A DNA stretch of 43,082 bases from Minisyncoccota bacterium. GTDB taxonomy: Bacteria > Patescibacteriota > Minisyncoccia > Minisyncoccales > Minisyncoccaceae. Each line of letters opens with the position of its first letter. Positions within the stretch are counted from its first letter, which is position 1. Location of the stretch: the NCBI GenBank assembly GCA_028716905.1, contig JAQUOX010000002.1, positions 1 through 43,082 on the forward strand, read 5' to 3'. This document shows positions 27,787 through 42,069 of the stretch, one piece after another. The notes beneath the pieces were generated by a model. The model saw nothing but the letters and a program-made list of their open reading frames with translations, had not been told where the DNA came from and made no database searches. The position numbers were made by a program, and so were the translations under genes.

Positions 27787-28452
27787 TTATTCTGTGAATA
27801 ATTTCATAAACCAGCCGAATAAGCTGAATTTACCATCCTCGGCTTTAATAAAAGATTCAATCTTTGCCTGCTCCTGCTCCAGTGTTTGAATTTGAGTTTG
27901 AAGCTCTATTTTATCACTTTCATTCTGAGCGCTTTCCATCAATGTGTTCAATTGCTCCAGCCTGTTCGTGGTTTGGACCGCTTCGCTTCTCAGCGTTCCC
28001 AGATTCTTATAATCAGAGCCCAAAAAGAACGTTTTTATCCTGTTTCTGGTCTGAACCTTTTCCATTGCCTGAACCGTTATTTCCGCGGATTGGTTCTGCT
28101 GTTGGGCAATTGTTCTCACCTGTTCTCCTATTCCTCCCTCTCTGTCGGCAACCTGTAAAAGGCTTTGTACAAAATTAGCCACGGTACTACGATGCTCTTC
28201 AGCATTAACTTTCTTTTGTTCTTGGCTTTGCTCCTGGTTCTGGTTTTGGGTCTGCTGTCCCGCGCCGTTTCCGTTTTGTGTTTGCTCATTATTCTGTGTT
28301 TGGATTTGATTATCTTCGCCCTGGTTGGATGTCTGTGTTTGCTGTTGATTTTGATTGCCCGTTCCGGCATTGCCTTGACCCACGGCATAAACGTTAACCA
28401 CGAAAGCGAAAACAATCATCAGAACGATTGGTACTAAAATTTTGTTTTTCAT
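27787..28452 (-). CDS. Secreted Q/N-rich coiled-coil protein (conserved CPR-type hypothetical)
   Basis: Signal peptide MKNKILVPIVLMIVFAFVVNVYA, a Q/N low-complexity block, then HRSTVANFVQSLLQVADREGGIGEQVRTIAQQQNQS...FSLFGWFMKLF. I recall this pattern from many Parcubacteria proteins. Confidence 0.75.
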   Translation of the reverse strand: MKNKILVPIVLMIVFAFVVNVYAVGQGNAGTGNQNQQQTQTSNQGEDNQIQTQNNEQTQNGNGAGQQTQNQNQEQSQEQKKVNAEEHRSTVANFVQSLLQVADREGGIGEQVRTIAQQQNQSAEITVQAMEKVQTRNRIKTFFLGSDYKNLGTLRSEAVQTTNRLEQLNTLMESAQNESDKIELQTQIQTLEQEQAKIESFIKAEDGKFSLFGWFMKLFTE

Positions 28453-28515
28453 GCTTTTTATTAATTAGTTTATTATTAAAACTACCATATTCTATTTTAC
28501 CAAAAAGTCGCCTGC

Positions 28516-28546
28516 TTGACAAGGTGGATTCCGCCCGTGACATAAT
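28516..28546 (+). promoter_or_regulatory. Candidate promoter for the 78-aa gene
   Basis: TTGACA (28516-28521) and TGaCATAAT (28538-28546). The spacer is on the long side at 19 nt. Confidence 0.35.
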
Positions 28547-28632
28547 GTTAAAATCTGTTTTGACGGACAAAAAAACGATTGATAAATTGAACCGAATAAT
28601 TTAAACTTTATTTCACACAAGGAGGTGTAAAA

Positions 28633-28869
28633 ATGTCCACTAACGATGTTGATCCTTTTGTAAAATGGGCCGAGGTTAAAAGGGCCTACGCGGCACTGAA
28701 GGAATGCCTGGAGGATAACGGCGACATGCCCGTGATACCGATCAAATCCTGGCCGCAGGTTGCCAAAAATGTCGGTAACCTTGTAACGAAAGCTACAGAG
28801 CTTTTAAGCGAAATTCCGAAAGCCCAAGAAAAAAACCGCGAATTTGTGGTAAGTATGTATGAAAAATAG
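28633..28869 (+). CDS. Hypothetical 78-aa protein
   Basis: A strong Shine-Dalgarno aaggaggtg lies 6 nt before the ATG, and an intrinsic terminator follows the stop. Confidence 0.6.
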   Translation: MSTNDVDPFVKWAEVKRAYAALKECLEDNGDMPVIPIKSWPQVAKNVGNLVTKATELLSEIPKAQEKNREFVVSMYEK

Positions 28870-28895
28870 CAAATTAACAAATTATTTATAAAATC

Positions 28896-28920
28896 AAGGT
28901 GATTCTCCACCTTTTTTTAT
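28896..28920 (+). terminator. Intrinsic terminator
   Basis: aaggtg-attctc-cacctt hairpin followed by TTTTTTT. Confidence 0.55.
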
Positions 28921-28945
28921 TTTCCCCTTGTTTTATTAGAACCCT

Positions 28946-29875
28946 TTACCGCCTTTTTTGAGCCAAGCCGTATTTTAATTCTACTAATCTTTGGACATAT
29001 TCTTGGCTGTTAATTGAGTTGTTGGCCAATAATTTATTCAATCCGGAACAATAGTTCTGTTCAATTTGAGATGTCGGGACGGCATTATTGTATATCCGGA
29101 CATCGTCAAGCAAACCGTTGAAATAGCGGTCAGTGGCGCTTCCATTGCCAAGGCGGACGGGATTGTTGGAAACATACATACTGTTAAACGACATATCTGT
29201 CTTTTCTTTGTCCAATCGTCCGTTTTGATAGGTTGCCGCGTAAGTATTGGCACCGTCAAAAACGTGCGTCATATAAACCCATGTTCTTAGCGGGATTTTT
29301 GTCCACGCTCCTGCTTCTGGATAAGAATAAGTGGAATTGTCGCCGCTTCTAATAAAAAAATATCCTGTGCCGGCGGTAGTCATTCCCGGTGACCAACTTC
29401 CTCCGGATACTACAGCGTATCCTTTTGACACAAAAAAAGAGTAATTACCAACTGGATATGAGTTGACATAGGCCCAATAGCCGATTGTAATTGCGTTGGA
29501 AATATTTTTTAAGCTATCATTGTTCCCGCAATTCACGTAATCATCCGTCCCGTCAAAAGCCAGACAGCCGTTGGAAACGCATTCCGTGGAAGTTCTCCAG
29601 GAAGGAGAAGTGTAGGCGCCTCCTCCGGCTCCGGACCAGGCGCCGGGATTGGCTCCCCATTGGTCTTGAACTGTTGTCCCAGAAGCATCGTCCAATCTCC
29701 ATTCGGAAACCAGGTTGAGCAGTAATGAATTCTTCAATGAATTGGCAAAGGCCTGTGATTTGGCAATAGTAGCCTTGGAAGAGACTCCGGTCATGGAAAC
29801 GATGATGAAGGCGGAAATGATTCCGATTATGACGATGACCACCAAAATCTCTATTAGAGTAAAACTTTTATTCAT
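28946..29875 (-). CDS. Type IV pilin-like protein with a LamG/concanavalin-like domain
   Basis: MNKSFTLIEILVVIVIIGIISAFIIVSM is a prepilin cleavage/methylation motif. LAFDGTDDYVNCG...LDDVRIYNNA is typical of a LamG laminin-G-like fold. Confidence 0.85.
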   Translation of the reverse strand: MNKSFTLIEILVVIVIIGIISAFIIVSMTGVSSKATIAKSQAFANSLKNSLLLNLVSEWRLDDASGTTVQDQWGANPGAWSGAGGGAYTSPSWRTSTECVSNGCLAFDGTDDYVNCGNNDSLKNISNAITIGYWAYVNSYPVGNYSFFVSKGYAVVSGGSWSPGMTTAGTGYFFIRSGDNSTYSYPEAGAWTKIPLRTWVYMTHVFDGANTYAATYQNGRLDKEKTDMSFNSMYVSNNPVRLGNGSATDRYFNGLLDDVRIYNNAVPTSQIEQNYCSGLNKLLANNSINSQEYVQRLVELKYGLAQKRR

Positions 29876-29968
29876 TGGTTAATTATACTAAAAACAAAGA
29901 AACGTGACAAGCATTCAGCCAGAGCTTCCAAGGTGGAGCAAAATTTTTCACCATCACCAGCCCTGTTT

Positions 29969-30157
29969 TTATTCCTTGATTAAACAGAGTGGTTCTCCAA
30001 AATCTCGTTGATTTTCAAGAACCTTGAATATAATTTTCAAGTTATCTTCCGTATAAAGTTTTTGGGAAAACCAAAACGCTCCCTTTGATATTTTCTTGTT
30101 GTTAAAAAAGAATAATAAGCCCGCGCCAATAAACACTATCCCGATAATTCTTTCCAT
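29969..30157 (-). CDS. Small hypothetical membrane protein (weak call)
   Basis: One TM helix (IIGIVFIGAGLLFFF) and a promoter-like element upstream. Confidence 0.35.
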   Translation of the reverse strand: MERIIGIVFIGAGLLFFFNNKKISKGAFWFSQKLYTEDNLKIIFKVLENQRDFGEPLCLIKE

Positions 30158-30198
30158 AATATTAATGTTTTAATGACCCTGACCTTTTCCTTCTTTTT

Positions 30199-30227
30199 AT
30201 TATATCAAAAAATCGCCGGTTTGGCGA
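30199..30227 (-). promoter_or_regulatory. Candidate extended -10 promoter with the same architecture as 27679..27707
   Basis: Minus strand: TCGCCA, 17 nt (ending TGA), TATAAT. Confidence 0.35.
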
Positions 30228-30565
30228 CTTTTTGAAATATCCTTACTCCCCCTCACTCGCTGAACCTCCTTCAGCAGGAGTTTCAACTGGGGTTTCGGGT
30301 GTTGTTGGTTCTTCACCTTCCATGTAAAACATATTAGTATAAGCCACAGAATCTAATAACCCCGCAGCAATTTAAATCTTTTCCATTTGACGACCTTTAT
30401 TCTTCTGTCTAGCTTTTAAATAAAAAACTCAAACAACTTGCAGTGGTATTATGTTTGAGTGCTGTCTATGCTCTAAAGGTATCATATTCGGGCTTTTTTG
30501 TCAACACGCCGAATCAAAAAGAAAGGTCCGTTGAAATAAGGCCGGTTTTATGGTATTTTTATTCA

Positions 30566-32026
30566 ATGAAGATAAAAACGGATAAAAAACATCTTTTTGC
30601 CGTGTTGGCGTTGGCCGGGATTGCTTTTCTGTTTTGGAGGGCCTATATCTTCGTCCCGACATACGCCAAACAATATTCCGCCACCCCGTCCTTCTGCGTT
30701 TATCAGGAAAAAATCTGCACCAGTATCGGTTTCAGCTTCACCGCTTCCCAGGAAACCGAAAGCAAGATTCCGCGATATACCGTCCGGGAATTCCCGGAAC
30801 AGGGAGAAACGAAAATAATCTTCTACAATACCTTCGGCACGGGCAAGCAATTTTCCTACGAAGAGGTTATCAGCAATCCTCTGATAGCCAAGCTGGACTA
30901 CTATCAAGAGGGGAAAAATTTCGTAATCGACATATTGAGAAAAGGGGCTTTTTTGCCTGCTGAGATATCGGAGAATCAATCCCTCGCCATTATTACCCTG
31001 AAAGAGGGCGATGAAAACTTCCCGATAATCTCTGACCAGAAGCCGTCTGATAACTCCGCGGCCTGGCCGGCTTTTCGGACCATAAGCTTTAAAACCATAC
31101 TAAGCGCCCCGCTGAAAAAAGCTGTTGTTTTCTTCCAAGATGAAAAAATAGAAGTTTCCGCCAATGAATTCGCCAAAAATCAATACTCTTTTTCTTTTCA
31201 GGAAAACATAGAAAAAGACAAAGAATACTCCATTAGGGCCATAATCACCGACACCCAGGACAGAACCACAATCAGCGTCTGGACCTTTGAAGGCCAGGTA
31301 TTGGCCGAAACGACCCTGGGCAAGGACCGGTTCAAGTATCTCGGCTGGTGGGGAGACGTCAACACCAACTATATCAATGTCAGGGAAGGACCGGGCACTT
31401 CGTCAAAAAAACTAGGCATCCTGTCTTCCATCAACAGAGTAAAGGTTCTAAAAGAAGTTTACGGCGAAGTCGTCAATGACAACAGCGTCTGGTACCAGAT
31501 AGACGGAGGACAATTCCCCAACGCCTATGTTTTTTCCGAATACGTAACGCCCATCGTCCAGCCCAAACCGCCGGAAGTATTCGTAATTCCCAAGGGCGTA
31601 AACCAAGGAGACTATTGGATTGATGTCGATTTGACCCAAAAAGTCATTACTTTGTTTGAATACGACAAGCCAGTTTTCGCTTCCTACGTTTCGCCGGGAA
31701 GGGAAGAAAACCAAACTCCGGAAGGCGCCTATAAGGTCTGGTACAAACTGAAAAAAGCGGGAATGAAAGGCGGTCCCCCTTTGCATGATTACGTCTACGA
31801 CCTGAAAGACATCCCCTGGATTATGTATTACAACGAATCTTACGCCATCCACGGAACTTACTGGCATGACCGGTTCGGGTCTCCCCAAAGCGCGGGCTGC
31901 ACCAATCTGACTCAGGGCGACGCCGCTTTCATCTTCGAGAAAACAAATCCGAAGCTAAAAACCGACCAGCAGGAATTATTCTCCGCCAGAAGCAATCCCG
32001 GAACCGTTGTCTTTAATCATTACTAA
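30566..32026 (+). CDS. L,D-transpeptidase (YkuD domain) with an SH3b-like domain and an N-terminal membrane anchor
   Basis: Catalytic YAIHGTYWHDRFGSPQSAGCTNL (H...SxGC). An SH3b-like YINVREGPGTSSKKLG...WYQI segment. I chose the ATG at 30566 (MKIKTDKKHLFAVLALAGIAFLF). Confidence 0.85.
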   Translation: MKIKTDKKHLFAVLALAGIAFLFWRAYIFVPTYAKQYSATPSFCVYQEKICTSIGFSFTASQETESKIPRYTVREFPEQGETKIIFYNTFGTGKQFSYEEVISNPLIAKLDYYQEGKNFVIDILRKGAFLPAEISENQSLAIITLKEGDENFPIISDQKPSDNSAAWPAFRTISFKTILSAPLKKAVVFFQDEKIEVSANEFAKNQYSFSFQENIEKDKEYSIRAIITDTQDRTTISVWTFEGQVLAETTLGKDRFKYLGWWGDVNTNYINVREGPGTSSKKLGILSSINRVKVLKEVYGEVVNDNSVWYQIDGGQFPNAYVFSEYVTPIVQPKPPEVFVIPKGVNQGDYWIDVDLTQKVITLFEYDKPVFASYVSPGREENQTPEGAYKVWYKLKKAGMKGGPPLHDYVYDLKDIPWIMYYNESYAIHGTYWHDRFGSPQSAGCTNLTQGDAAFIFEKTNPKLKTDQQELFSARSNPGTVVFNHY

Positions 32027-32236
32027 TTAAAATCGGAATCAATGGGTAGCACCCCGAAACACGAATCGCCCAAACCTTGTTCCTCTTTCCAACTCAAAAC
32101 TCCTTCAATCTTTTCAAATTCAATCAACACGATTAAACGCATTTGTAATTTTATTTTGGCAAAAACAGAAAACAGGCAAAAAAATGATTGTTGCGATTAT
32201 TGAAATTAAAAATATTAAATACTGCTTTTTATTATT

Positions 32237-32515
32237 TTACTTATTAATGATTTTTATTGCCTTGCCTTCAATAATGGCTTCGGCAATCTTTTTCCTCGTC
32301 GAGGTTAATATTCTTTGAAGGGTGCTTTGAGAAATATTCATTTTGGCCGCCGCCTCCTTCTGCTCCAAACCTTCATAGTCGCAAAGCCTCAACGCTTCCA
32401 GTTCATCTGGCTCCAAATCGACTTCTTCCAGCAAGGACAAAGGTATTGCCCTGGGCTTAAAATACGTCACTCCCGGATTAAAGCGTATTTTTCTTGGTTT
32501 TATTGGTCTTACCAT
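32237..32515 (-). CDS. DUF134 (UPF0251) HTH protein
   Basis: MVRPIKPRKIRFNPGVTYFKPRAIP...LEALRLCDYEGLEQKEAAAKMNISQSTLQRIL matches the DUF134 pattern. An alternative ATG lies at 32548. Confidence 0.8.
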   Translation of the reverse strand: MVRPIKPRKIRFNPGVTYFKPRAIPLSLLEEVDLEPDELEALRLCDYEGLEQKEAAAKMNISQSTLQRILTSTRKKIAEAIIEGKAIKIINK

Positions 32516-32566
32516 AACATTATTAAGCAAAATATCCTGCCCCCCCATAAGAGGCAGGATATTTTT

Positions 32567-32794
32567 CTATTCCGGCTTTTCGGCTTCGCTAATTATCTCT
32601 TTAATGGCCTTTAAATCCTCTTCCAATATCCTGGCCTCTTCTTTCAATAATTCCAACTCTTCTTTTCCTGTAAAAAATCTTCTGCATCCAAATCCTCTGC
32701 CAAAACCACGACCGACCCCACCGTAACACGGACCCATTCTTCTTCCCGTTCCGGCACCCGTTCCGGCTGGCCCGGTTTTATCTAAATTAGGCAT
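32567..32794 (-). CDS. DUF5320 family protein
   Basis: MPNLDKTGPAGTGAGTGRRMGPCYGG, a GRGFGRGFG segment and a C-terminal coiled coil. It shows the usual pairing with DUF134. Confidence 0.75.
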   Translation of the reverse strand: MPNLDKTGPAGTGAGTGRRMGPCYGGVGRGFGRGFGCRRFFTGKEELELLKEEARILEEDLKAIKEIISEAEKPE

Positions 32795-32849
32795 ATGTTT
32801 TATTATTAATTATTATATAGCGATAGGACGAGTACCGCCGTCTATTATG

Positions 32850-32878
32850 AGTATATATTCATAATAACATTTTGTCAA
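32850..32878 (-). promoter_or_regulatory. Candidate sigma70-type promoter for the DUF5320-DUF134 operon
   Basis: Minus strand: TTGACA, 17 nt, TATACT. Confidence 0.45.
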
Positions 32879-32883
32879 GCGTG

Positions 32884-32906
32884 CAAAAACCGACGGAAGG
32901 GTCGGT
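32884..32906 (-). terminator. Probable intrinsic terminator after the MliC-domain gene
   Basis: Minus strand: accgac-ccttcc-gtcggt followed by TTTTT. Confidence 0.5.
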
Positions 32907-32966
32907 CTTTACGCTTGCCAAATATTGACTCCGTTAGCCGGCCGACCTTAGAATCTGTTTTAATAA

Positions 32967-33863
32967 TTATTGCACAGTCAAAGAATGGCGGATCTTTTCG
33001 AATTGATTTATGAGGGCGGTCCTATCAAATTCCAAAACAGTGCCTTCGGGATAATTTCCGATATTCGTAGAATGTACGAAATAACGTATGGCAATACAGG
33101 GATTGGTTCCCGGAATCGCCCAAACTTGTTCTTCGTAACGGTTGCCGGCGGCGCCCTGGATTATTGACGCGAAAGAATAATCGCTGCCATTATCAACTAC
33201 GGCTTGAACATCGGCATTGTTGTCCAGAAAAAGACCGGCATTACAATCTTCGGTCGCAGGAATGATTTCTATTGAAACGCCCGTATCGAAACTTGATAAA
33301 TTGGTGCCTGTAGCAATGTTGGGCGGAATGGTTAATTTTACACCGCTGATATCTTTACCTGGCCCAAGCGCCTGATATTTATATGAAGGGTCCACCGAAT
33401 AATCGGCCGGATAGCGAATTGAAAAGCCGGCCGCACTGTCTAAATAAGCATTGGGCAGTCCTCCGGAATCTTTAGCAAGCACGATGCACCCTATGTAGCT
33501 TTTTTCAACATTGTTTTCCAAGACAAGCGCCCCGTTTCCTTTGCTCCAAAAAACGAACGATTCGTCGCTGTTGGCATAACGTACTCCGCTGGCGGAAATG
33601 GTCTGAAGCAAATCAAAGTTTCGCCCGTCGCTTAAAACAATCTTTACGCTTCCCGAAGGAATCGGCGGTTCGCCCGGCTCCACCGACACGGTCTCTCCTT
33701 TATAGAAAGCGGCGTCTATCGTCTTGTCGCCGTTACAGACATAGGTAACCTGGGCTATGGGAGACGGCAAGGGATTTTCGTTCCCTTTGTTATCGGCATA
33801 CCATATTCCCGTGCCTGCGAGAATAATCACTATCAGAAGAATAAATATAATATTTTTTTTCAT
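32967..33863 (-). CDS. Secreted/anchored protein with an MliC-like (lysozyme-inhibitor fold) N-terminal domain
   Basis: Signal/TM segment, then VTYVCNGDKTIDAAFYKGE...LLQTISASGVRYANSDESFVFWSKGNGALV matches the MliC pattern. The C-terminal half is unassigned. Confidence 0.65.
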   Translation of the reverse strand: MKKNIIFILLIVIILAGTGIWYADNKGNENPLPSPIAQVTYVCNGDKTIDAAFYKGETVSVEPGEPPIPSGSVKIVLSDGRNFDLLQTISASGVRYANSDESFVFWSKGNGALVLENNVEKSYIGCIVLAKDSGGLPNAYLDSAAGFSIRYPADYSVDPSYKYQALGPGKDISGVKLTIPPNIATGTNLSSFDTGVSIEIIPATEDCNAGLFLDNNADVQAVVDNGSDYSFASIIQGAAGNRYEEQVWAIPGTNPCIAIRYFVHSTNIGNYPEGTVLEFDRTALINQFEKIRHSLTVQ

Positions 33864-33982
33864 AAATCAATGAATTTATCGTCTTAAGTCATTTTATCAC
33901 AAAACAAAAACCGACGGAAGGGTCGACATTTGAAATACTTTACCTTATCGGGAATTGACTCCCTACATAGGTCTTGAACCTT

Positions 33983-34111
33983 CTACACCCAAGCCCCGTA
34001 AGGGTTTGTTGGGCTATACTTCAAGTATATCACAACTGAAGAAGCTTTGGTGCTATTCTCTCTTTTAATCGCCCATCCCTTGCTGTGAGGAACTACATGC
34101 TGATTTGACAT
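33983..34111 (-). pseudogene. Truncated DUF2188-like ORF (42 codons)
   Basis: MSNQHVVPHSKGWAIKRENSTKASSV matches the DUF2188 N-terminus (HVVP..GWAVK....AS) as I recall it. It then diverges and stops about 30 aa short of the usual length. Confidence 0.35.
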
Positions 34112-34168
34112 ATTGTTGTATAATTTATAATCCTTTCTTATATAATAAAACAAATTATGAAATAAAGC

Positions 34169-34195
34169 AAAAACCGCTCACCTACTGGTGGCCGG
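34169..34195 (-). terminator. Possible intrinsic terminator just outside the left repeat
   Basis: Minus strand: ccggccacc-agta-ggtgagcgg (one mismatch) followed by TTTTT. Confidence 0.4.
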
Positions 34196-34229
34196 TCTCT
34201 TGGAACCCCTCACTGGTTGGCTCCGAACG

Positions 34230-34532
34230 CTGAACGAAATCCGAACTTTTTTCAAAGAAAATCCCGAACAAGAATGAGGTGCGTTTCCGCTTGCCTCCGC
34301 TCCGCTACGGCAAACCAAAACAGAAAAATCTTCTCTACATTTTTTAATTTTTTCGCGCACAATTTTTTCTTTTAAAAGGAAAAGAAAATTTTTCTGTTTT
34401 GCGTTTCTCTTATTCAGAGAAAAGCGGAAACGCTCTATTCTTAATCGCAAAAGGGCAAAAATTCCTTCCCCCAGACCCCCTTCCTTTTTGCCCTTTTGCT
34501 TTTCGGGCTTCGCCCGATTTTTTTGCGGGGCT
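34230..34532. repeat. Left copy of a perfect 303-bp inverted repeat (partner at 41518..41820)
   Basis: The reverse complement of 34230-34532 equals 41518-41820 at every base, checked line by line. Confidence 0.95.
34447..34524 (+). terminator. Tandem-hairpin intrinsic terminator facing into the cassette (inside the left repeat)
   Basis: Plus strand: a 15-bp perfect stem (34447-34461 with 34485-34499), then a tcgggc-ttc-gcccga hairpin (34503-34517), then T7 (34518-34524). Confidence 0.5.
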
Positions 34533-34557
34533 ACAAATTTAAAGGGTGGAGGGTGGG

Positions 34558-35958
34558 TTAAGACTTTTTCTTGTTTTTTGAATAATCTATCTCTGGAAAT
34601 TTTACAATTTTACCACGACTTTCCAAGATTGCCTTCCTGCATTCCTTTGCAAATTTTTTATCACTATTTTCCCTAACATATCTTACCACTTCAAACAGAT
34701 CAGAAGTTCTAACAAGAATCGCATTTAATCTTTCGGCATTCTTTATACATTTATCTGTAAATTGTTCCTCTCTTTTTTCCGGTCGAATAACTCTAAAACC
34801 ATTTCCAAACAAAATGCCTATTGCAGGATCAGACACTTCTTCTTTTTGTAAATCTTCCTGTATGTTTGATTCAAGCTGTCTAAATTTATCAATGTTTATC
34901 GCACCATTATCCTTACCCTCTGCTTCCCCGATATACCTTTCACCCTCGGGCGATACAATAATCTGATCAATTTCTAAACTGCCATCGTCATAATTTTCAG
35001 CTTTATAACCTAAAATTTCTAGGGCTTTGATAATAGCGTTCTCTAGTGGTTTGCCTTTTTCGTAAATCAGATTTTTCAACTCCATTTCTTTGTGTAAGGA
35101 ATCTAACAAAGTATTTTTTTCTGTGGTGAAAGTTTCTATTTTTTTGGAAATATTATCTATTTTCTTTTTAAGCTCTGTTTCAAGTTTCAATCTATATTCT
35201 TTTTGTGCGACCCAATCTGGCGGCGGTGAAGTTTCAACAGATCCACGCAATGCATTATCAATATCAACCAATACTTGAATTAAACGTTTGCCGAACTTCA
35301 CTGCCTCATCAGTCCAAAACGATTCTTCTTTCTCGTATTTTGTAAATTTTTCTGGATATCTAACTGGGGGCAATAAGACTAGATTTCCTTTTCCTACCCT
35401 GAACAAACCGCCTACAGGCTTATTTCCTGTTTTGGTAAAAAACAAAGGGGTTTCAATTTTGCCGTCTATGTAAGATTCGTATTTAATGCGTTCCTTAAAC
35501 TCACTCCAAAAGGTTGTAAATATACCATTATTATTAAATTTTAACTCCGTTCCTTCCTTCGGGATTAAACCGGGAATATCTACTGGCAAAAATTCATAAT
35601 TATTGTACGAAGAAACCAAATTTGTAACTCTCGTATTTCTGCCAGTACCAGAATATTGTTTTTGTCCAGTGTGAACAAAAACTTCCTCATATTGACCCAT
35701 AAAAACAAGGACTGTCTTCCCGTCTTGTAGTGCCGTTGAAATTTCAGAGTGCCAATGTCTCGTATCCTCTTTCAAACGAAAAGATTCATTCTCGCTAAAA
35801 GAAGGTTTACCCTGATAACTGTCATAGTAGCTATAGTTAGAAAAATCTGGTTCAAAAACAACAATGTCTGCGTCTAACAAAGATTGAGAAGATGTATATG
35901 GTTTGTAGTCGTCAGCGTAACCGGGTATATCGAAACCCACTGAGATAATTTTTTTCAT
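34558..35958 (-). CDS. Uncharacterised 466-aa protein: unknown N-terminal domain, central coiled coil, C-terminal PD-(D/E)xK-like region. Last gene of the restriction-type operon.
   Basis: Its ATG overlaps the Res stop as ATGA (35955-35958). The C-terminus LEIDQIIVSPEGERYIGEAEGKD fits D-x15-ExK. Coiled coil: KLETELKKKIDNISKKIETFTTEKNTLLDSLHKEMELKN. Confidence 0.7.
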   Translation of the reverse strand: MKKIISVGFDIPGYADDYKPYTSSQSLLDADIVVFEPDFSNYSYYDSYQGKPSFSENESFRLKEDTRHWHSEISTALQDGKTVLVFMGQYEEVFVHTGQKQYSGTGRNTRVTNLVSSYNNYEFLPVDIPGLIPKEGTELKFNNNGIFTTFWSEFKERIKYESYIDGKIETPLFFTKTGNKPVGGLFRVGKGNLVLLPPVRYPEKFTKYEKEESFWTDEAVKFGKRLIQVLVDIDNALRGSVETSPPPDWVAQKEYRLKLETELKKKIDNISKKIETFTTEKNTLLDSLHKEMELKNLIYEKGKPLENAIIKALEILGYKAENYDDGSLEIDQIIVSPEGERYIGEAEGKDNGAINIDKFRQLESNIQEDLQKEEVSDPAIGILFGNGFRVIRPEKREEQFTDKCIKNAERLNAILVRTSDLFEVVRYVRENSDKKFAKECRKAILESRGKIVKFPEIDYSKNKKKS

Positions 35959-38660
35959 TTTACAATATCAAAAATATTTTTAGGATCATCAAGTACCTTA
36001 AACACCCACTTCCCAAAATTTCCATTTTCATTTACCGCTTCAACCCATTCCTTCGCCGCTTGCCATTTTGCTTTATCTTGCTCCTTCGTCTGGCCTTTAA
36101 CCTCTAAAATAATGTGTCTATTATCCTTAAATTTCACAATATAGTCGGGGTAGTAAGTGTGTGTTTGGCCTTGCCACAAATAATAAATTTCAAATCCAAG
36201 ATGATCATTTTTTACCCACGAAATTAAATCTTTTATTCTGTTCCGCTCCAATTCAAAAGCCAAGCTACCCTCCCAACCGCTATCAACGACGATATGGCTA
36301 ATTTGGCTTTTATTAACTGGCTGTGTTTTCTTGCTTGTGTACCACGTCATCGCTGTTGCCGTACCTCGCTTCGGACGCACAGGATCAAGAATGGCAAGCG
36401 GCGCATCCTTGCTTGAACTTCTGATAAAATTTCCGATGTGATTCACAATCGCCTGAATATTTAAGGCGATCATAATATTTTTTAATTTTTCAGAACCGGC
36501 AAAAACAGGAACTTTCATCAGCAATTTATCCGATTCCAAAAACTTATCAATAATCTGTATCAATTGCCCAATATGGCTTCCGGGATCGCCTTTCCAATTT
36601 TTGCCAAACTGCTCGTGTAAACGAACTGCCGCTTGAAGTTTTGATTTTTGCAACCTGTGTTCCTCAGCGAGCTTATCAAGGTTAATTTCGCTAATTTGGT
36701 CAAACTTCGGACGACCTTCAATTGTAGGAGCAACTTCTACGATTGTTGGTGAATCTTCCGGCGACAAAATCAGTTTTTCCAACTTATCCCATTCTAAATC
36801 CAAAAAGTAATTCAGCTTATAATCGACACGCAAAACATGTGGCCAATCTATTTTCAAATCCTTTCTATCTTGTAGAGGCTCTATTTTTGTTTTCGGCTTT
36901 TCCGGTCCGGGCGTTTTTTCCTTGCCTTCTGCTGGCAAGAAAGTGAACGGCACGCCAAATACCGTGACATATTCGGGATCATAAAGATTAGTTTCGGGAT
37001 TAATATCGTAAGAAATCCTGCGCAAACCTCGGCCGACAACCTGCTCACAAAGGAGTTGGCTCGTAAAGGCTCGTAATCCCAAAATATGAGTAACTGTTCT
37101 TGCGTCCCACCCTTCGGACAACATATTAACGCCAATAACACACTGGACTTGTTCTCCAGCCTTTTCTTCTTTTCCAACCGTATTAAATTTTTCTCGTTCA
37201 AGCTCAACCAGTTCTCTTTTGGATTTATCCAGCTTTTCTTCTTCGTCAGCTTCAATTTTATCTAAAGCGTCTTGGTCTATGCGAATCAACTTCGTCTTAT
37301 CCGCCAATTCATCAACAGAGAAAAATCCGTTTACCAAAGAGTATTCTAATCTCGCCGCCGTTTCCGTTCGGTTAGAAATCATAATCATAACAGGTGGCGT
37401 TTTTCTCTCTTGTTTTTGCCAATCGTCTTTTGATTGAAGCCAATCCGCCCCCAAGATATTAACCGCGTTTCTGACAAGATCGGGCAGACCCTCGTGTTTT
37501 TCTGCACGGCGATTCAAGTCCTCTTTGACATGCTCGTAAATATGGAAAAATCTTGACTTCAAATCTTTATCCAATTTTGAATCATCTCTCACCGCAACTT
37601 TTGGCGTTTTCACCAAACCACTCTCAATTGCATCGTTTAGCCCAAAGTCACTGACAATCCAAGTAAACAACTGCTCACCTTGATTATTGCGACCTGTCGG
37701 CTTGAACGGCGTTGCAGTTAAGTCATACGCTCTCAAAACACCCCGCGCACGACTGATTCTGTCAATTCCACTCACCCAAATTGTCGCTTTTTCTTTTTCG
37801 CTCGCATCTTCTTCTCCAGTTGGCCCATGGCAGTGGTGCGCTTCGTCATTGATAATTAAAATGTTTGTGGCGTTTCCGAAATCAGGAAGAACACGCCGCA
37901 CAAATGCCTCTTCGCTTTCTGGCCCCTTTTTTATTACTTTCGGTCCATAGTTTTCATTGTATGGCGCAAGTGTATGCCAGTTTGTTACCTCAATTTTTGC
38001 CTGCAAAAGCTCTTGCCACATTGCAGAATCAACCAAAATAAAACTTTGATAAAAATTATCGGGATTGTCTGGCAGTAAAACTTGCAAACGATCCCGCACC
38101 GTAAGACCCGGCGCAATAATTAATATATGTTTTGAAAATCTTGCGTCTTTAGGGTTGGCGATTTTATTTAACGCCTGCCAAGCAATAAGCATAGCCATTA
38201 CTACCGTCTTTCCCGTTCCTGTTGCTAATTTCAAACACTGCCTTTCCCATTCGCCACTATCAGCCGGAATATCTATACCCTGTTTTTCAGCAGTGCTCGC
38301 CTCTGTAAGCCAAATTGCCGTTTCTACGGCTTCAAATTGACACCAAAACGGCTGAAGTTCTCTCTGCGACTTATCATTCCAAAAATCAAGCAGCCGTTTC
38401 GTAACGCCGGTAACATTGGGATAACCCTTTTCCCTCCATTCTTTAACTCTCGGCCTGATTTTATTAACTAAAGGAATCTCAATAAATTCGCCGGGATCCT
38501 CGCTATCCCCACGATTGCGCGCCGTAGCCCGCCAATAGCCTGACTTTCTCCGTCCGGGCTTTCTTTCAAAACTTTGCGATTCGCGAATATAGAGCCAATG
38601 TTCTTTTGGTTCCTCGTAGGGATTGTTAATTATAAGTTGGTCAATTGATTTACTAGACAT
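35955..38660 (-). CDS. res: Type III restriction enzyme Res-like subunit (SF2 DEAH helicase + C-terminal PD-(D/E)xK nuclease)
   Basis: Helicase motifs ATGTGKT, INDEAHH, LTATP and VVGRGLRR. C-terminal YPDYIV...IILEVKG nuclease motif. The N-terminal INNPYEEPKEHW is typical of this Res family. Confidence 0.85.
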   Translation of the reverse strand: MSSKSIDQLIINNPYEEPKEHWLYIRESQSFERKPGRRKSGYWRATARNRGDSEDPGEFIEIPLVNKIRPRVKEWREKGYPNVTGVTKRLLDFWNDKSQRELQPFWCQFEAVETAIWLTEASTAEKQGIDIPADSGEWERQCLKLATGTGKTVVMAMLIAWQALNKIANPKDARFSKHILIIAPGLTVRDRLQVLLPDNPDNFYQSFILVDSAMWQELLQAKIEVTNWHTLAPYNENYGPKVIKKGPESEEAFVRRVLPDFGNATNILIINDEAHHCHGPTGEEDASEKEKATIWVSGIDRISRARGVLRAYDLTATPFKPTGRNNQGEQLFTWIVSDFGLNDAIESGLVKTPKVAVRDDSKLDKDLKSRFFHIYEHVKEDLNRRAEKHEGLPDLVRNAVNILGADWLQSKDDWQKQERKTPPVMIMISNRTETAARLEYSLVNGFFSVDELADKTKLIRIDQDALDKIEADEEEKLDKSKRELVELEREKFNTVGKEEKAGEQVQCVIGVNMLSEGWDARTVTHILGLRAFTSQLLCEQVVGRGLRRISYDINPETNLYDPEYVTVFGVPFTFLPAEGKEKTPGPEKPKTKIEPLQDRKDLKIDWPHVLRVDYKLNYFLDLEWDKLEKLILSPEDSPTIVEVAPTIEGRPKFDQISEINLDKLAEEHRLQKSKLQAAVRLHEQFGKNWKGDPGSHIGQLIQIIDKFLESDKLLMKVPVFAGSEKLKNIMIALNIQAIVNHIGNFIRSSSKDAPLAILDPVRPKRGTATAMTWYTSKKTQPVNKSQISHIVVDSGWEGSLAFELERNRIKDLISWVKNDHLGFEIYYLWQGQTHTYYPDYIVKFKDNRHIILEVKGQTKEQDKAKWQAAKEWVEAVNENGNFGKWVFKVLDDPKNIFDIVK

Positions 38661-38662
38661 AA

Positions 38663-41134
38663 TTATTCAAGTTTTTTTATTACAAAGGATTCAATTCCTC
38701 TGTTATCTATAATTTTAACAGCGATTTTCTTTTCTTCCCCGGCTTCAAATGGCAATGATTCAACGCCAGTAAATGACTCTATTAATTCCTCATCAATTTC
38801 ACCATTGAGAGCTTTGGCTAATTTCGTCCAGTCACGCTTGCTGTCTTTCATAGGGAAAAATACTTGGTCGGGCAGTAAACTTCGCTCATCATAGTCAGTA
38901 TCCAAAAACCACATCGCAATATGCGCATTGCTCTTTGACTCAATTTCTCCGCTAATTGGATTGTAATAATCAAAACCATTAACTCGGATTTTATACTTTT
39001 CGCCTCTTTCTTTAATAACCTCAACATCTGGCTGGCCGATGAGCCAATAGCTTTGATTTGACGATCGTTTCTTTCGCAAATCAGCCGTGAGTAAGTCCAC
39101 ACTCATTTGTGCTTTAAGAATCTGCACGCCGGACCAATCAATTTGATCAATGTCTTTTGCCGCCTCCGGATCAAAGTGGAAGGCCGCAAAAATTACAAAA
39201 TCAGGTTTCTCTTTTATTTCGCGAGCTTCTTTAACGGCTTCTTCAACTTGCCTCTGTTCCATTGGTCCAAAATCAGGTCCAAAACTGATGTATGCTTTTT
39301 TAGTTTTATCTTTTTCTATAATCTCGCCTTTGGCATGCAAAAATTTTGTCGCAAGCATTGGCTCAATAACTGAAAATTCAATTTTCTTTCCGCCAGTTGT
39401 GCGTATACCGGTTGTTTTAAGCTCGTCGCGATAAAGCGTTTGATTTCCAGTCTCGCCGGTTTGCGATAACTCTCTGCCACCACCTTCAACTTTTGGCTCT
39501 TTCTCGTCAAACGGCTTGACTCGTAAACTGGGCACAGCTTCAACGGTAAATGGTCCCGTTACTCTTATTTTATTCTTTTCAATTTTGGGTATGTCGTATA
39601 AATTTTCTGATTTTGCTTCGGATTCTTTTGTAAAAGTACCCACAGAAATGTGAGGAATTTCTTTGTATATCAATCCACTTCTTATTCCTTCTTCCTTATG
39701 TGCCAACTCATAATATTCAAAGTTAGCGATCATCAATCTCTGCTTCGCAAGGGTTATTGCAACTCGTGATGTGTCGCAAGTTATCCAACGACGACCCCAC
39801 TTCTCTGCAACAAATGCGCTAGTACCCCCGCCACAAGTAGGATCTAAAATTAAATCACTCGGATCTGTTGTCATGAGCATGCATCGCTCAATAACTTTGT
39901 CTTGTGTTTCCACCACATATGACTTTCCTGAAGCCGCAGTCGTATCAAACCACATATTAGTTAATCGTGAGGCTGGGAAATCTTTGTAGTAAGAAATGAA
40001 ATACAAACTATTCCCCCTAGCGGTAATTCTCCCTAACGCTTCGAGTTTTTTCATCCCTTCAAGATTTGTTTTCCATGACTTATTTGAGCGCGGCTTGTAT
40101 ACTTTTCCTTTAAATTCGTAGTCGTAAACACATGAGGGAGTAAGTCCCGAAGAGTTAAGATCACCTAATGCGATCCTATCTTCCAAAGGAGAATCGTCTT
40201 TGGCTTTCTCAATTTTTTTGTTTACTAGAATATACGGATAATTCTTTTTTGATTCCTCATTTTTCTCGACAAATAATTCCCTGAATTTCATTTGTTTTTT
40301 ATCTTTGGCGTACCAAATAATAATGTCATACAAATGAGCCAAGTCGTTTGAACCTAAAACGCCCCTTGTTTTATACGATACCATTGCTACAAAATTATCC
40401 TTATTAAATATTTCCTCCATAACTTCTCTAACATGGTGAATATTTTCTTCATTTATCTGCACAAAAACACTACCACTTTCGTGGAGCAGTTCTTTAGCAA
40501 GCAATAATCTGTCTCGCAAGTGTGTAAGATAGCTATGTACCCCTAATTCCCAAGTATCGCGGAACGCCTGAATCATTTCTGGCTCTGCTGGAATGTCCTC
40601 ATCTCGATCTTTAACATCTTTTTTATTTACAAACGGCTGAAAGTTTGAGTTGTATTTAATGCCGTAGGGCGGATCAATATAAACCATCTGCACTTTGCCC
40701 GCCATGCCTTCTTTGTTGAGTAAGCTATTCATTACTAAAAGCGAATCCCCGGAAATGAGACGGTTTGTCCAGTCCTGCTCGTGTTTATAAAATTCAATTG
40801 CCTTGTTTAGCGGCGGCTCATTATCCGGCTGATCAAAAAGAGAAACCTGTTTTGGCCCGGTATCTTTTTTCAAAAACGATTTGATTATCCTTTTTGGATC
40901 AATTCGTTCATGAATATGCAAGCTGATATTTTGCACATCAAACTCCATACCTTCTTTTTTCCCAGCCCAGCTCAAATATGGGTCAATATGAGGATCGTGT
41001 GCGTATTTTTGCCGGCCATCAAATTTATCGGTTGCACTAGAAACTAACCCTACCGGCGGGATATTCTTTCGTTTCGCTCCCTTATGGGCGTATGTTTTAA
41101 CCTCTATTTTTTTGTTGGCTTTTTTTCTTGGCAT
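38663..41134 (-). CDS. mod: Beta-class N6-adenine/N4-cytosine DNA methyltransferase, Type III Mod-like, with a long C-terminal extension
   Basis: Motif IV IDPPYG precedes motif I LDPTCGGGTSAFVAEKWGRRWITCD, which is the beta-class order. Only 2 nt separate it from res. Confidence 0.85.
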   Translation of the reverse strand: MPRKKANKKIEVKTYAHKGAKRKNIPPVGLVSSATDKFDGRQKYAHDPHIDPYLSWAGKKEGMEFDVQNISLHIHERIDPKRIIKSFLKKDTGPKQVSLFDQPDNEPPLNKAIEFYKHEQDWTNRLISGDSLLVMNSLLNKEGMAGKVQMVYIDPPYGIKYNSNFQPFVNKKDVKDRDEDIPAEPEMIQAFRDTWELGVHSYLTHLRDRLLLAKELLHESGSVFVQINEENIHHVREVMEEIFNKDNFVAMVSYKTRGVLGSNDLAHLYDIIIWYAKDKKQMKFRELFVEKNEESKKNYPYILVNKKIEKAKDDSPLEDRIALGDLNSSGLTPSCVYDYEFKGKVYKPRSNKSWKTNLEGMKKLEALGRITARGNSLYFISYYKDFPASRLTNMWFDTTAASGKSYVVETQDKVIERCMLMTTDPSDLILDPTCGGGTSAFVAEKWGRRWITCDTSRVAITLAKQRLMIANFEYYELAHKEEGIRSGLIYKEIPHISVGTFTKESEAKSENLYDIPKIEKNKIRVTGPFTVEAVPSLRVKPFDEKEPKVEGGGRELSQTGETGNQTLYRDELKTTGIRTTGGKKIEFSVIEPMLATKFLHAKGEIIEKDKTKKAYISFGPDFGPMEQRQVEEAVKEAREIKEKPDFVIFAAFHFDPEAAKDIDQIDWSGVQILKAQMSVDLLTADLRKKRSSNQSYWLIGQPDVEVIKERGEKYKIRVNGFDYYNPISGEIESKSNAHIAMWFLDTDYDERSLLPDQVFFPMKDSKRDWTKLAKALNGEIDEELIESFTGVESLPFEAGEEKKIAVKIIDNRGIESFVIKKLE

Positions 41135-41150
41135 ATTTACCTTGGCATAT

Positions 41151-41354
41151 TTACTTTATTAAATCATCAACACTTACTTCAAGTGCCTTAGCAAGCTTGG
41201 TTAGTGTTTCAATGGTCGGATTTTTATTTACTCCGGATTCAATACGAATAACCGTGTTCAATGATAAATCAGCAAGCCGAGCCACTCTTTCTTGGGAGTA
41301 GCCCTTCTGTGCTCGTAGTTTCTTAAAATTGTTAGCTATTTTGTTGTTTGACAT
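41151..41354 (-). CDS. XRE-family HTH protein (possible controller of the restriction-type operon)
   Basis: LRAQKGYSQERVARLADLSLNTVIRIESGVNKNPTIETLTKLAKAL. It sits 16 nt upstream of mod. Confidence 0.85.
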   Translation of the reverse strand: MSNNKIANNFKKLRAQKGYSQERVARLADLSLNTVIRIESGVNKNPTIETLTKLAKALEVSVDDLIK

Positions 41355-41517
41355 AAGATTACTTGCAATATACCATTAAAAGATATAAACTAAATGATAG
41401 GACATATTCATTAGCTATTTTTATGGTATATCATTTTATCACATTTGGCAACCTTTCAGGGAGTTCCCCGTTGCCCGCGCACGGGAGTGGTGGGGCAAGG
41501 GCAACTATAATTATAAA

Positions 41518-41820
41518 AGCCCCGCAAAAAAATCGGGCGAAGCCCGAAAAGCAAAAGGGCAAAAAGGAAGGGGGTCTGGGGGAAGGAATTTTTGCCCTTT
41601 TGCGATTAAGAATAGAGCGTTTCCGCTTTTCTCTGAATAAGAGAAACGCAAAACAGAAAAATTTTCTTTTCCTTTTAAAAGAAAAAATTGTGCGCGAAAA
41701 AATTAAAAAATGTAGAGAAGATTTTTCTGTTTTGGTTTGCCGTAGCGGAGCGGAGGCAAGCGGAAACGCACCTCATTCTTGTTCGGGATTTTCTTTGAAA
41801 AAAGTTCGGATTTCGTTCAG
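41518..41820. repeat. Right copy of the perfect 303-bp inverted repeat (partner at 34230..34532)
   Basis: Exact reverse complement of the left copy. Confidence 0.95.
41526..41603 (-). terminator. Tandem-hairpin intrinsic terminator facing into the cassette (inside the right repeat)
   Basis: Mirror image of 34447..34524. Read on the minus strand: the 15-bp stem hairpin, then the 6-bp GC hairpin, then T7. Confidence 0.5.
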
Positions 41821-41854
41821 AATACGGAGCCAAATTGTATGTTCGGCGTTTGTT

Positions 41855-42069
41855 GCCTCGGCGCAAAGCGCCTCGGCACGCGCCCTGCGGGCGCTTAGGC
41901 CTGATTTTAAGAGGATTTGCCACGCTCCGCGTGGCTCAAAAACCAATTCCCGTTCCCGCAAAATTCGGTTCGCTTTGCGAAGCAACAAAATCCCGCTCTG
42001 CGGGATAGCCAATCTTTTTTCTCGCCCACAGTGCGAGTTACAAAGCGATAATTATTCCGCGAAGCGGAA
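41855..42069 (+). other. Array of seven short GC-rich stem-loops (mostly 3-nt loops) in the leader of the recombinase gene
   Basis: Hairpins: ggcgc-aaa-gcgcc (41860-41872), gcgccc-tgc-gggcgc (41880-41894), gccacgc-tcc-gcgtggc (41919-41935), ttcgc-ttt-gcgaa (41969-41981), tcccgc-tct-gcggga (41991-42005), ctcgc-ccacagt-gcgag (42021-42037), ttccgc-gaa-gcggaa (42055-42069). Confidence 0.7.

Follow-up and report, generated by a model that had tools for sequence, protein, structure and literature searches.

The DNA described here is a 43,082-nucleotide stretch of the genome of a Minisyncoccota bacterium (contig JAQUOX010000002.1; the whole stretch is called the window below). Towards its right end, two long inverted repeats enclose a four-gene operon of restriction-modification (R-M) type and are followed by the start of a gene for a large serine recombinase (LSR). 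We call the repeats U arms, the short sequence at their outer ends the core, and a second repeated stretch, which begins at the core beside the recombinase, the S arm. Related loci in other assemblies are labelled L with a number. The features at the locus are these:

34217-34225, plus strand: core copy c3, TTGGCTCCG, whose reverse complement, CGGAGCCAA, is the tRNA-Asn 3′ end; island/host junction of the type U-core-B′
34217-34532, plus strand: left U arm, 316 nt, with its perfect part at 34230-34532; the outer end faces the host, the inner end the cargo
34447-34499, plus strand: core hairpin of the U arm, with a 15-bp stem (GCAAAAGGGCAAAAA and TTTTTGCCCTTTTGC) and a 23-nt pyrimidine mirror-repeat loop (TTCCTTCCCCCAGACCCCCTTCC); mirror copy at 41551-41603
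34504-34524, plus strand: putative terminator, the hairpin CGGGCTTCGCCCG plus a T7 run, at the inner end of the U arm and reading into the cassette; mirror copy in the right arm
34540-34556, plus strand: conserved G-rich box AAAGGGTGGAGGGTGGG; separates the stop codon of cargo gene 4 from the U arm
34558-35958, minus strand: cargo gene 4, "X", 466 aa, predicted nuclease with a PD-(D/E)xK-like C-terminal domain
35955-38660, minus strand: cargo gene 3, BPTD_3080-family restriction enzyme (NCBIfam NF046055) with helicase and PD-(D/E)xK nuclease domains (Pfam ResIII and TnsA-like_N)
38663-41134, minus strand: cargo gene 2, Type III-like N6/N4 DNA methyltransferase (PADLOC MTase_III PDLC03632, E = 3e-145; Pfam N6_N4_Mtase, PF01555)
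41151-41354, minus strand: cargo gene 1, XRE-type helix-turn-helix (HTH) protein resembling controller proteins (Pfam HTH_3, PADLOC Control_protein); belongs to the conserved backbone
41355-41517, minus strand: operon leader and predicted promoter region, with an operator-like inverted repeat (41368-41388 and 41411-41431), a conserved C-rich box and TATAAT at the arm boundary
41518-41833, minus strand: right U arm, the inverted copy of the left arm
41825-41833, plus strand: core copy c2, CGGAGCCAA, inverted relative to c3; internal site of the type U-core-S, the form of an intact attP
41825-41971, plus strand: S arm, the core and about 140 nt of spacer rich in GC hairpins; near-identical to L115 6852-6998, which pairs 100% with L115 8492-8638
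42113-43082, plus strand: LSR, N-terminal 323 aa; its ATG lies 292 nt beyond 41820, and the gene is cut by the window end, which is also the contig end

The U arms at 34230-34532 and 41518-41820 are exact reverse complements, identical at 303 of 303 positions, and 6985 bp lie between them. Extended outwards, the repeat covers 34217-34532 and 41518-41833, that is 316 nt at 99% identity, with mismatches only at 34226, 34228 and 34229 (left AACG, right TATT). The decay of identity is confined to the last 13 nt beside the core, beyond which both copies share the outer tip TTGGCTCCG or CGGAGCCAA; at the inner edges identity drops at once. The outer flanks (...CACTGGT on the left, AATTGTA / AATTGTATG... 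on the right) contain no direct duplication, and blastn found no third copy of the repeat within the 43-kb window.

Inside the repeats, the genes of the operon are tightly packed. A 16-nt gap separates the HTH gene from the methyltransferase gene, 2 nt separate the latter from the helicase-nuclease gene, and a 4-nt ATGA overlap leads into X; the leader (41355-41517) also falls within the repeats. The product of cargo gene 3 scores 994.8 bits against NF046055, where the cut-off is 800, with residues 7-897 covered. With a restriction subunit above the family cut-off and a cognate N6/N4 methyltransferase adjacent in the operon, this is a Type III-like R-M system of the BPTD_3080 family. An earlier account of this DNA, made from the sequence alone (the sequence-only reading), had described the perfect 303-bp repeat with its sharp inner edges and short shared outer tip, the four-gene minus-strand operon with these gaps and its own upstream region inside the repeats, and an LSR start 292 nt outside the right repeat. 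All of these observations held, the ATG of the LSR being at 42113 and the tip being TTGGCTCCG. That account missed the tRNA-gene site, the fact that the left edge is a host junction, the second repeat around the LSR in relatives and the conservation of the unit in hundreds of loci.

The LSR fragment matches the Resolvase (PF00239, 2.4e-23), Recombinase (PF07508, 8e-16) and Zn_ribbon_recom (PF13408, 7e-11) families of Pfam. Its best NCBIfam neighbours are CcrB, XisF and CcrA, with scores so far below the curated Ccr and XisF cut-offs that it is not a member of those equivalogs. A search with the fragment returned more than 578 relatives in metagenome contigs, and the best 80 were analysed; full-length relatives have 500-545 aa. 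Of the 46 loci with 1650 nt or more of sequence after the LSR start, 32 have a tRNA gene (17 Asn, 9 Gln, 6 Ser) that lies +1333 to +1625 nt from this start, runs on the strand opposite to the LSR and overlaps the end of the LSR open reading frame (ORF). When shorter loci are counted, about 45 show a tRNA. The LSR gene is bracketed by the S inverted repeat (85-155 nt, 90-100% identity) in 46 of 52 testable loci, and a U-homologous unit lies less than 1 kb upstream of it in 41 of 53 related loci. Homologues of the HTH protein were found at 71 loci. A divergent HTH gene recurs upstream of the LSR, and a second, inverted U copy follows 2.2-8.5 kb further on. Paired U arms of 100-388 nt, 92-100% identical and 2.2-8.5 kb apart, are present at about 30 loci, including the independent assemblies L115 (324 nt, 99%), L164 (180 nt, 100%), L085 (336 nt, 97%) and L186 (315 nt, 100%).

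The same layout recurs in more than 40 related loci: host, core and U, HTH-led defence cargo, U and core, S, LSR, and finally S and core, where the core is the 3′ end of the tRNA gene. By comparison with these relatives, the inverted S partner of the window is expected inside the 3′ end of its LSR gene and its tRNA gene at about 43600-43675, both some 0.3-0.6 kb past the window end. Many related contigs (for example L111-L121) either break off within a U arm or reach only as far as the 3′ half of the LSR gene, consistent with assembly breaks at the S and U repeats; the window stops earlier, at LSR codon 323.

The target of the recombinase can be read from the ends of the arms. Read on the other strand, the outermost 8-9 nt of the repeat (TTGGCTCCG) give CGGAGCCAA, the sequence in which tRNA-Asn(GTT) terminates, its CCA included. 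In L080, L038 and L115 an intact tRNA-Asn gene ends in ...CGGAGCCA and is followed by AATTGTATGTTCGGC, as in window 41825-41847, and in L080, L038 and L056 tRNA-Asn ...CGGAGCCA stands directly 5′ of AATTGTATGTT, which matches the same window positions. Three copies of the core can be aligned in L115 and L164, with the pattern U-core-B′, U-core-S and tRNA-core-S. In L115, c3 reads ...GTTCAGAATA, CGGAGCCA, GTTAGGAC... (U-core-host, the attR form), c2 reads ...GTTCAGAATA, CGGAGCCA, AATTGTATG... (U-core-S, the attP form, inverted), and c1 reads ...CCCTGGCCG, CGGAGCCA, AATTGTATG... (tRNA-core-S, the attL form). Copies c2 and c3 of the window align with the L115 sites, and window c2 has the same arm and core sequences as L115 c2. 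The stretch common to the U and S repeats is precisely the 7-8-nt core. Both outer junctions of the island are visible in relatives (c1 and c3 of L115; L164; L038 with L108), and the window shows the left one only (34217-34225). Units of other subfamilies carry at their tips the reverse complement of a different tRNA end (TTGGCGGT.. for Ser, TGGTCGC.. for a Pro-like tRNA), and in each case the matching tRNA gene adjoins their LSR. Two other views of these ends were rejected. A tRNA-like fold of the outer part of the unit fails in that only the last 8-12 nt match a tRNA and ARAGORN finds none in the window, and an LSR-only element with a perfectly palindromic attP (S′-core-S) fails in that the two cores flanking the LSR are inverted, not direct.

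A sister-strain contig of 600 kb, L017, bears directly on the left junction. Over window positions 28001-34225 the two sequences are 99.97% identical; immediately past TTGGCTCCG they part, and L017 enters another R-M island. The left repeat thus has, as its outer boundary, a junction that varies between strains. Comparison of relatives at the locus, which the sequence-only reading had proposed, was informative on this point, as L017 replaces the island exactly at the core. A truly empty target site was not found among the relatives, L017 showing a replacement polymorphism instead. The island of L017 (1-9639; JGI 3300037067) encodes an HTH_17 protein, a 710-aa N6 methyltransferase, an HsdS-like protein, a HARE-HTH protein, a 470-aa unknown protein and a Dam-like methyltransferase. 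It has no U arm, and no LSR or tRNA gene lies within 10 kb. The arm beside its core, GTTCTAACCTCATCAAGCAGG, loosely resembles the tip of U (12 of 21 positions).

Within the family, the cargo changes on a conserved backbone. The backbone of L022 (LSR 92.5% and U 96-97% identical at the nucleotide level, HTH identical) carries another cargo, consisting of an SNF2/PLD helicase, an Eco57I-like methylase and an AbiV-like protein. The identical 67-aa HTH protein heads different cargos in L022, L023 and L024, in L024 followed by hsdM. The cargos of members all consist of defence genes: Type III R-M with Shedu, Type III R-M with an OLD/Gabija-like ATPase, Mokosh/Hhe-like helicase-nucleases, GmrSD, Type IIG and Dam-type systems, and others. 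No transposase or replication genes were seen in the cargos of the members examined. In L022 (ERZ2647956 NODE_6343) a single cargo has outward-pointing modules of U, S and LSR start on both sides, the two LSR starts being 88% identical at the nucleotide level. This may represent two islands, a rearrangement or a low-coverage chimera; a hairpin-type assembly artefact was rejected, as the two ends differ (88% identity over the LSR start).

The orientation of the segments also differs between relatives. In L023, L026 and L027, the HTH and methyltransferase genes of the window (98.6-99.9% nucleotide identity) are found with a U arm, and the HTH-side arm adjoins unrelated host DNA, so the same cargo is reversed relative to the host junction. 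The HTH gene is distal to the LSR in L121 and proximal to it in L112, L115, L119 and the window; L085 and L102 differ likewise. L163 and L164 stem from separate samples. Their 6.4 kb of host flank and their 1.56-kb LSR segments are 100% identical, and the LSR segment is inverted between perfect arms of 129 nt. In L163 the tRNA-Asn gene is co-directional with the LSR and just upstream of it, and could drive the LSR by read-through. An all-against-all search of the loci for identical cargo in opposite orientation, at 85% identity or above, returned none, only the LSR segment of L163 and L164 and trivial hits.

We consider it probable that the two repeats, as paired U arms, belong to a modular integrative defence island that the neighbouring LSR inserted into the 3′ end of a tRNA-Asn(GTT) gene. 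Judging from the sequences compared, the family to which it belongs is one of widespread LSR islands at tRNA genes, with interchangeable anti-phage operons, mostly in the candidate phyla radiation (CPR)/Patescibacteria. An island of this kind would hold three copies of the 8-bp core CGGAGCCA: c1 at the tRNA, c3 at the far end of the cargo, and c2, inverted, between cargo and LSR. Beyond position 43082, an inverted copy of 41825-41971 would contain the end of the LSR gene, at about 43.6 kb; next would come TGGCTCCG and, on the minus strand, a tRNA-Asn(GTT) gene. An empty target site would read tRNA-Asn...CGGAGCCA followed by ACCAGTGAGGGGTTCC, or tRNA-Asn, core, ACCAGTGAGG.

Movement would begin with LSR recombination between c1 and c3, which would release a circle. 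In that circle, two identical inverted U-core-S repeats of about 450 nt would separate the LSR segment from the cargo segment, and re-integration could proceed through either copy. Exchange between the long arms, whether homologous or mediated by the LSR, would allow gene conversion to keep the arms identical and would flip the cargo and LSR segments, while the conserved HTH/U backbone would supply the homology for cargo swaps between elements. A candidate for the excised form is L188 (BBPD01006100.1), a contig of 7388 nt with a 42-nt terminal direct overlap that closes to a circle of 7346 bp. It has a complete 513-aa LSR ORF, two inverted arms of 398 nt, a 1488-nt LSR segment and a 5062-nt cargo segment with an HTH gene and a gene for a 1336-aa Mokosh/Hhe-like helicase, and it matches the circle predicted from excision between the outer two cores.

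The identity of the arms fits the same scheme. Arms are 97-100% identical inside one element (often 100%) and about 92-97% identical between elements, which supports ongoing homogenisation, the pattern expected of gene conversion or flip-flop recombination, over a single recent duplication; plastid inverted repeats and the 2-micron plasmid show a similar pattern. The sequence-only reading had left a choice between very recent duplication and ongoing homogenisation, and only the latter agrees with these figures. Its suggestion of a mobilisable defence cassette linked to a serine recombinase was also correct, in view of the recurring LSR/HTH/U backbone with varying defence cargo. Its further suggestion of an invertible cassette fared less clearly. 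The reversed cargo of L023 (98.6% nucleotide identity) and the difference between L121 and L112, L115 and L119 speak for it, and the junction scan described below does not, so that inversion of this cassette appears plausible and is unproven.

Several observations weigh against the island model or parts of it. The window ends within the LSR, and its tRNA, its second S arm and c1 are deduced from relatives. No tRNA gene stands at the expected place in 14 of the 46 loci. The orientation of the LSR to the tRNA is nearly fixed, at about 45 loci against one (the exception is L163, with the tRNA upstream on the same strand), whereas a ratio of about 1:1 would be expected if either attP copy were used equally. 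Canonical LSRs recombine attP with attB, or attL with attR together with a recombination directionality factor, and we know of no LSR that recombines attP-like with attL- or attR-like sites; inversion catalysed by the LSR is therefore not expected. A scan of metagenome contigs for a flipped junction of the window element gave 0 matches, in a search with neither a positive control nor a count of unflipped junctions. The arms exceed the k-mer of the assemblers, so the orientation of short-read contigs is uncertain; this applies to L121, to L163 and L164, and to the 6985-bp segment of the window, whose 303-nt perfect repeat is longer than any assembler k-mer and whose orientation is uncertain without reads. 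The circular path of L188 also occurs as a cycle in the assembly graph of an integrated copy. The double-LSR structure of L022 is not predicted by the simple model.

The U arm itself is under structural constraint. The unit folds as a long imperfect hairpin (DNA parameters, z = -5), and RNAalifold predicts four helices in an alignment of 36 diverse units. In this alignment 96.4% of cells form standard pairs, compared with 44-56% in controls in which the partners were slid by 1-3 columns, and two-sided (compensatory) changes occur in 18 of 36 pairs, compared with 5-11 in the slid controls. The observed covariation was reached by no shuffle. In the outer stem of the core hairpin, AAAA:TTTT alternates with GGCG:CGCC. 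The stem at L093:4561-4893 (minus strand) is chimeric, its left half of the GGCG type and its right half of the TTTT type, resulting in G-U pairs and mismatches; it looks as if a crossover between unit variants had taken place inside the invariant loop.

The most conserved part of U is a near-invariant 41-nt block, GGGCAAAAA-TTCCTTCCCCCAGACCCCCTTCC-TTTTTGCCC. An exact 28-mer of this block is present in 82 stretches of species-representative genomes, mostly of Patescibacteria but some from contigs binned to Omnitrophota, Elusimicrobiota, Ignavibacteria, Leptospiraceae, Dehalococcoidia and others, several of them short and possibly mis-binned. The exact 28-mer has no copy in IMG/VR, hence there is no sign of a phage origin. 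At loci found through the LSR and not through the motif, the loop varies but retains two C-tracts 3-4 nt apart. A search of full-text literature for the loop motif returned only an unrelated pig microRNA paper. A hairpin with a T-run at the inner end of U is found in relatives too, built from several unrelated sequences, which suggests that inward-facing terminators insulate the operon from outside transcription; in the island model, these hairpins would shield the R-M operon in this way.

One possible explanation of this constraint, compatible with the island model and held only tentatively, is that the U arm primarily encodes a structured RNA about 290 nt long, whose transcription would run inward and stop at its own terminator. 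Such an RNA would regulate the cargo or the LSR or aid recombination, and the duplication would supply or insulate it. The strong covariation in four helices, the hairpin and T-run maintained in unrelated sequence versions and the retention of the 41-nt hairpin across many lineages all agree with an RNA. The strand signal is conflicting: in the shared helices G-U pairs exceed A-C pairs by 38 to 14 on the inward strand, yet the reverse strand folds at least equally well in RNAalifold. The core hairpin is reversed in one LSR subfamily (L134, L135, L056), a conserved promoter was not recognised, unrelated host DNA lies upstream of the left copy, and maintenance of a palindrome at the DNA level could mimic covariation. 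Rfam gave no family at the gathering threshold for the U arm and none at permissive thresholds; the best sub-threshold match, Plastid-psbA-2 3′UTR, scored 29 bits against a gathering threshold of 55.8 and is a generic hairpin.

A broader and rather doubtful proposal joins structure and movement. Here the U arm would be a functional structured RNA or a folded or cruciform DNA that works with the LSR and is centred on the 41-nt C-tract hairpin, and the island would be a platform for flip-flop and cassette exchange, a 2-micron-like circle that integrates via either copy and swaps or inverts its cargos.

It is unlikely that the locus is a programmed inversion switch, in which the LSR would recombine inverted cores (c2 with c3, c1 with c2) and flip the cassette, its own gene or both to give phase variation. 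Examples would be read-through from the tRNA promoter into the LSR in one orientation and coupling of the cargo operon to the LSR in the other. The geometry invites this view: inverted sites with an identical core flank both segments, the recombinase gene lies within its own segment bounded by inverted repeats, like hin, and the palindromic dinucleotides of the core (GC, CG), as read from the sequence, would remove the polarity of the sites. L163 and L164 differ solely by inversion of the LSR segment, and close relatives differ in cargo orientation, but orientation differences between short-read contigs may be path choices of the assembler. Inverted repeats and a nearby site-specific recombinase are present, as in known invertons, but inversion would bring about no change in promoter-gene arrangement or coding sequence, as the leader (41355-41517) and the controller gene lie inside the repeats, and flipping alters no obvious expression state. 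The near-fixed LSR orientation (about 45:1), the lack of a known LSR synapsis between attP-like and attL/attR-like sites, and the absence of any contig with the flipped junction in the scan without positive control also stand against a switch.

The sequence-only reading had considered two copies of a miniature inverted-repeat transposable element (MITE), or a composite transposon. If so, the repeats would be the terminal inverted repeats of a composite element, either transposon-like or of MITE origin, that is mobilised by some transposase, and the LSR would be a mere neighbour. Long terminal inverted repeats with TG...CA tips, the hairpin fold of the unit and its frequency across many genomes would suit such an element. 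This explanation is nevertheless very improbable and the suggestion did not survive: the tips are tRNA 3′ ends (..CCA) that match the LSR-adjacent tRNA in each subfamily (Asn, Ser, Pro-like), there is no target-site duplication (flanks CACTGGT and AATTGTA), no transposase is found in any cargo, no solo copy occurs elsewhere in the 43-kb window, and the U unit, S arm and LSR form one contiguous conserved block tied to the recombinase/HTH backbone. An assembly artefact, either a chimeric join or a duplicate made by the assembler, is barely credible, for although contigs from two runs in Logan stop at the edges of the repeat (at 34516 in L001 and L002, at 34246 in L020), the contig of the window ends abruptly inside the LSR and L022 (coverage 4x) has its odd double-LSR structure, paired arms recur in dozens of independent assemblies from different samples and assemblers with differing cargos and arm sequences, the two copies in the window have different outer flanks and 3 mismatches near the core, and the MEGAHIT contigs L023, L026 and L027 cross the whole unit into unique sequence on both sides.

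The island shares much with known LSR elements. SCCmec with Ccr, Tn4451 and Tn5397 with TnpX and TndX, and the phages phiC31, Bxb1 and A118 likewise use an LSR with Resolvase, Recombinase and Zn-ribbon domains, encoded at one end of the element. LSR-driven islands also have site-specific junctions with a short common core, accessory or defence cargo and different islands at the same site in different strains. The present family differs in that its target is a tRNA 3′ end and the LSR ORF runs into that target, in that an extra, inverted attP-form core is retained inside the integrated island, and in its two sets of long near-identical inverted repeats (U of about 300 nt, S of about 130 nt). Canonical LSR att sites are about 50 bp long and have no such arms.

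Other systems resemble it in geometry. In the 2-micron plasmid, FLP acts on FRT sites that lie in 599-bp inverted repeats, and as in the predicted circle there are two long identical inverted repeats that hold the recombination site, with the recombinase encoded on one segment. Flip-flop between the 2-micron repeats produces isomers and keeps the repeats identical. FLP is a tyrosine recombinase, however, and the plasmid replicates autonomously and does not integrate; the likeness is one of geometry only, and the circle here is deduced from L188 alone. Hin and Gin segments and the epigenetic invertons of R-M systems also have inverted repeats around a segment, a serine recombinase gene inside or adjacent, and an R-M association. 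They rely on small serine invertases or tyrosine recombinases, with sites of 26-30 bp or repeats in hsdS, and switch a promoter or specificity gene, whereas in the window a whole operon with its own promoter lies between non-coding arms of 300 bp. Integrons combine a fixed recombinase platform with exchangeable cargo bounded by structured, hairpin-forming sites, but they use the tyrosine integrase IntI, attI and direct-orientation attC sites; with a serine enzyme and inverted units, the present element is not an integron. Engineered recombinase-mediated cassette exchange with phiC31 has the same design of cargo between inverted att-type sites, with both orientations as products, in an engineered reaction; natural cargo swapping here could equally be homologous recombination in the conserved backbone.

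The tycheposons of Prochlorococcus are also close in layout: these cargo islands integrate at the 3′ ends of a small number of tRNA genes, have partial tRNA repeats on their flanks and can enter one site in succession (10.1101/2020.12.28.424599). They mostly have tyrosine recombinases and replication modules, an LSR being used by 27 of 937, and the text reports neither paired long inverted arms nor an internal inverted att site (10.1101/2020.12.28.424599). In contrast, no replication genes were seen in the present family and its cargo consists solely of defence genes. A published description of a layout combining LSR, tRNA, CPR, defence genes and inverted att sites was not found, in a literature coverage that is incomplete and cannot prove absence. 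The features that we could not find described are the internal inverted attP-form site, the two homogenised sets of long inverted arms and the conserved structured arm.

CPR/Patescibacteria have tiny genomes with few recognised mobile elements, and are rich in R-M systems. An LSR island family would account for the movement and exchange of whole defence operons, with their own regulation, among CPR and apparently beyond, which is a more general finding than the sequence-only reading could have drawn from the window. If the flip-flop and exchange platform is real, it would be the serine-recombinase counterpart of the integron for anti-phage genes in CPR. The partner of the U arm, be it the LSR, the HTH protein, RNA polymerase or the ribosome, could point to a new level at which serine integrases, or the establishment of R-M systems, are controlled. 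The family also offers recombinases with known natural targets (the 3′ ends of tRNA-Asn, tRNA-Gln and tRNA-Ser genes), and its paired inverted att-type sites follow the plan that engineers use for cassette exchange. For metagenomics, such arms would systematically break or mis-orient contigs at defence islands.

The last cargo gene, X, matched nothing in Pfam, PADLOC or NCBIfam. Its more than 1100 homologues are unnamed and always form the last gene of HTH-led R-M operons of differing types (DpnII-like, with an XhoI neighbour, Type III-like). An AlphaFold2 model (predicted local distance difference test 88.6) has a C-terminal domain that resembles EndoMS and FokI (PD-(D/E)xK) and a flavodoxin/GATase1-like N-terminal domain, and residues D331, E345 and K349 are invariant among the homologues. 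A sequence search of the Protein Data Bank returned nothing useful, the nuclease domain being indicated only by comparison of folds. From the modelled fold, X is probably an accessory nuclease of R-M systems. Around the nearest X homologues (L003-L016) no repeats were found except for a diverged unit in L011; these loci carry other R-M types and are uninformative on whether the same operon occurs without repeats.

The non-coding borders of the cargo are conserved as well. The leader (41355-41517) is present with 94-99% nucleotide identity, together with the backbone, in L022, L023 and L025-L028, and the G-rich box AAAGGGTGGAGGGTGGG in L080, L112, L115, L119, L120, L121 and L022. A C-rich GTTGCCCTTGCCCC..CGTGCGCGGGCAAC hairpin and TATAAT stand upstream of the HTH gene (41455-41517), and such boxes at the cargo boundary are conserved in many elements. 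Pairing is conceivable between the G-rich and the C-rich box, or between these boxes and the C-tract loop.

Two further relatives depart from the common layout. In L029 (2484-7856), the closest relative in the genome collection (LSR 93% identical at the amino acid level), the place of the tRNA after the LSR is taken by a second defence operon, which encodes an Eco57I-like methyltransferase, a T5orf172-ResIII helicase and a HARE-HTH-PDDEXK protein. L083 (6163-7023) is a degenerate remnant beside dnaX and dcd, in which an LSR gene without its first 94 codons is fused to the middle of a U unit.

Left of the island, a gap of 350 nt separates the last host gene from the junction. It contains a truncated DUF2188 ORF (33983-34153, minus strand), in which model positions 1-24 of 62 match and the rest is unrelated; the fragment may be a scar of earlier events at this hotspot. 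A 21-nt element, CAAAAACCGACGGAAGGGTCG, which forms a small hairpin, is identical at 32884-32904 and 33905-33925, downstream of two neighbouring host genes, and the two copies are probably shared terminators.

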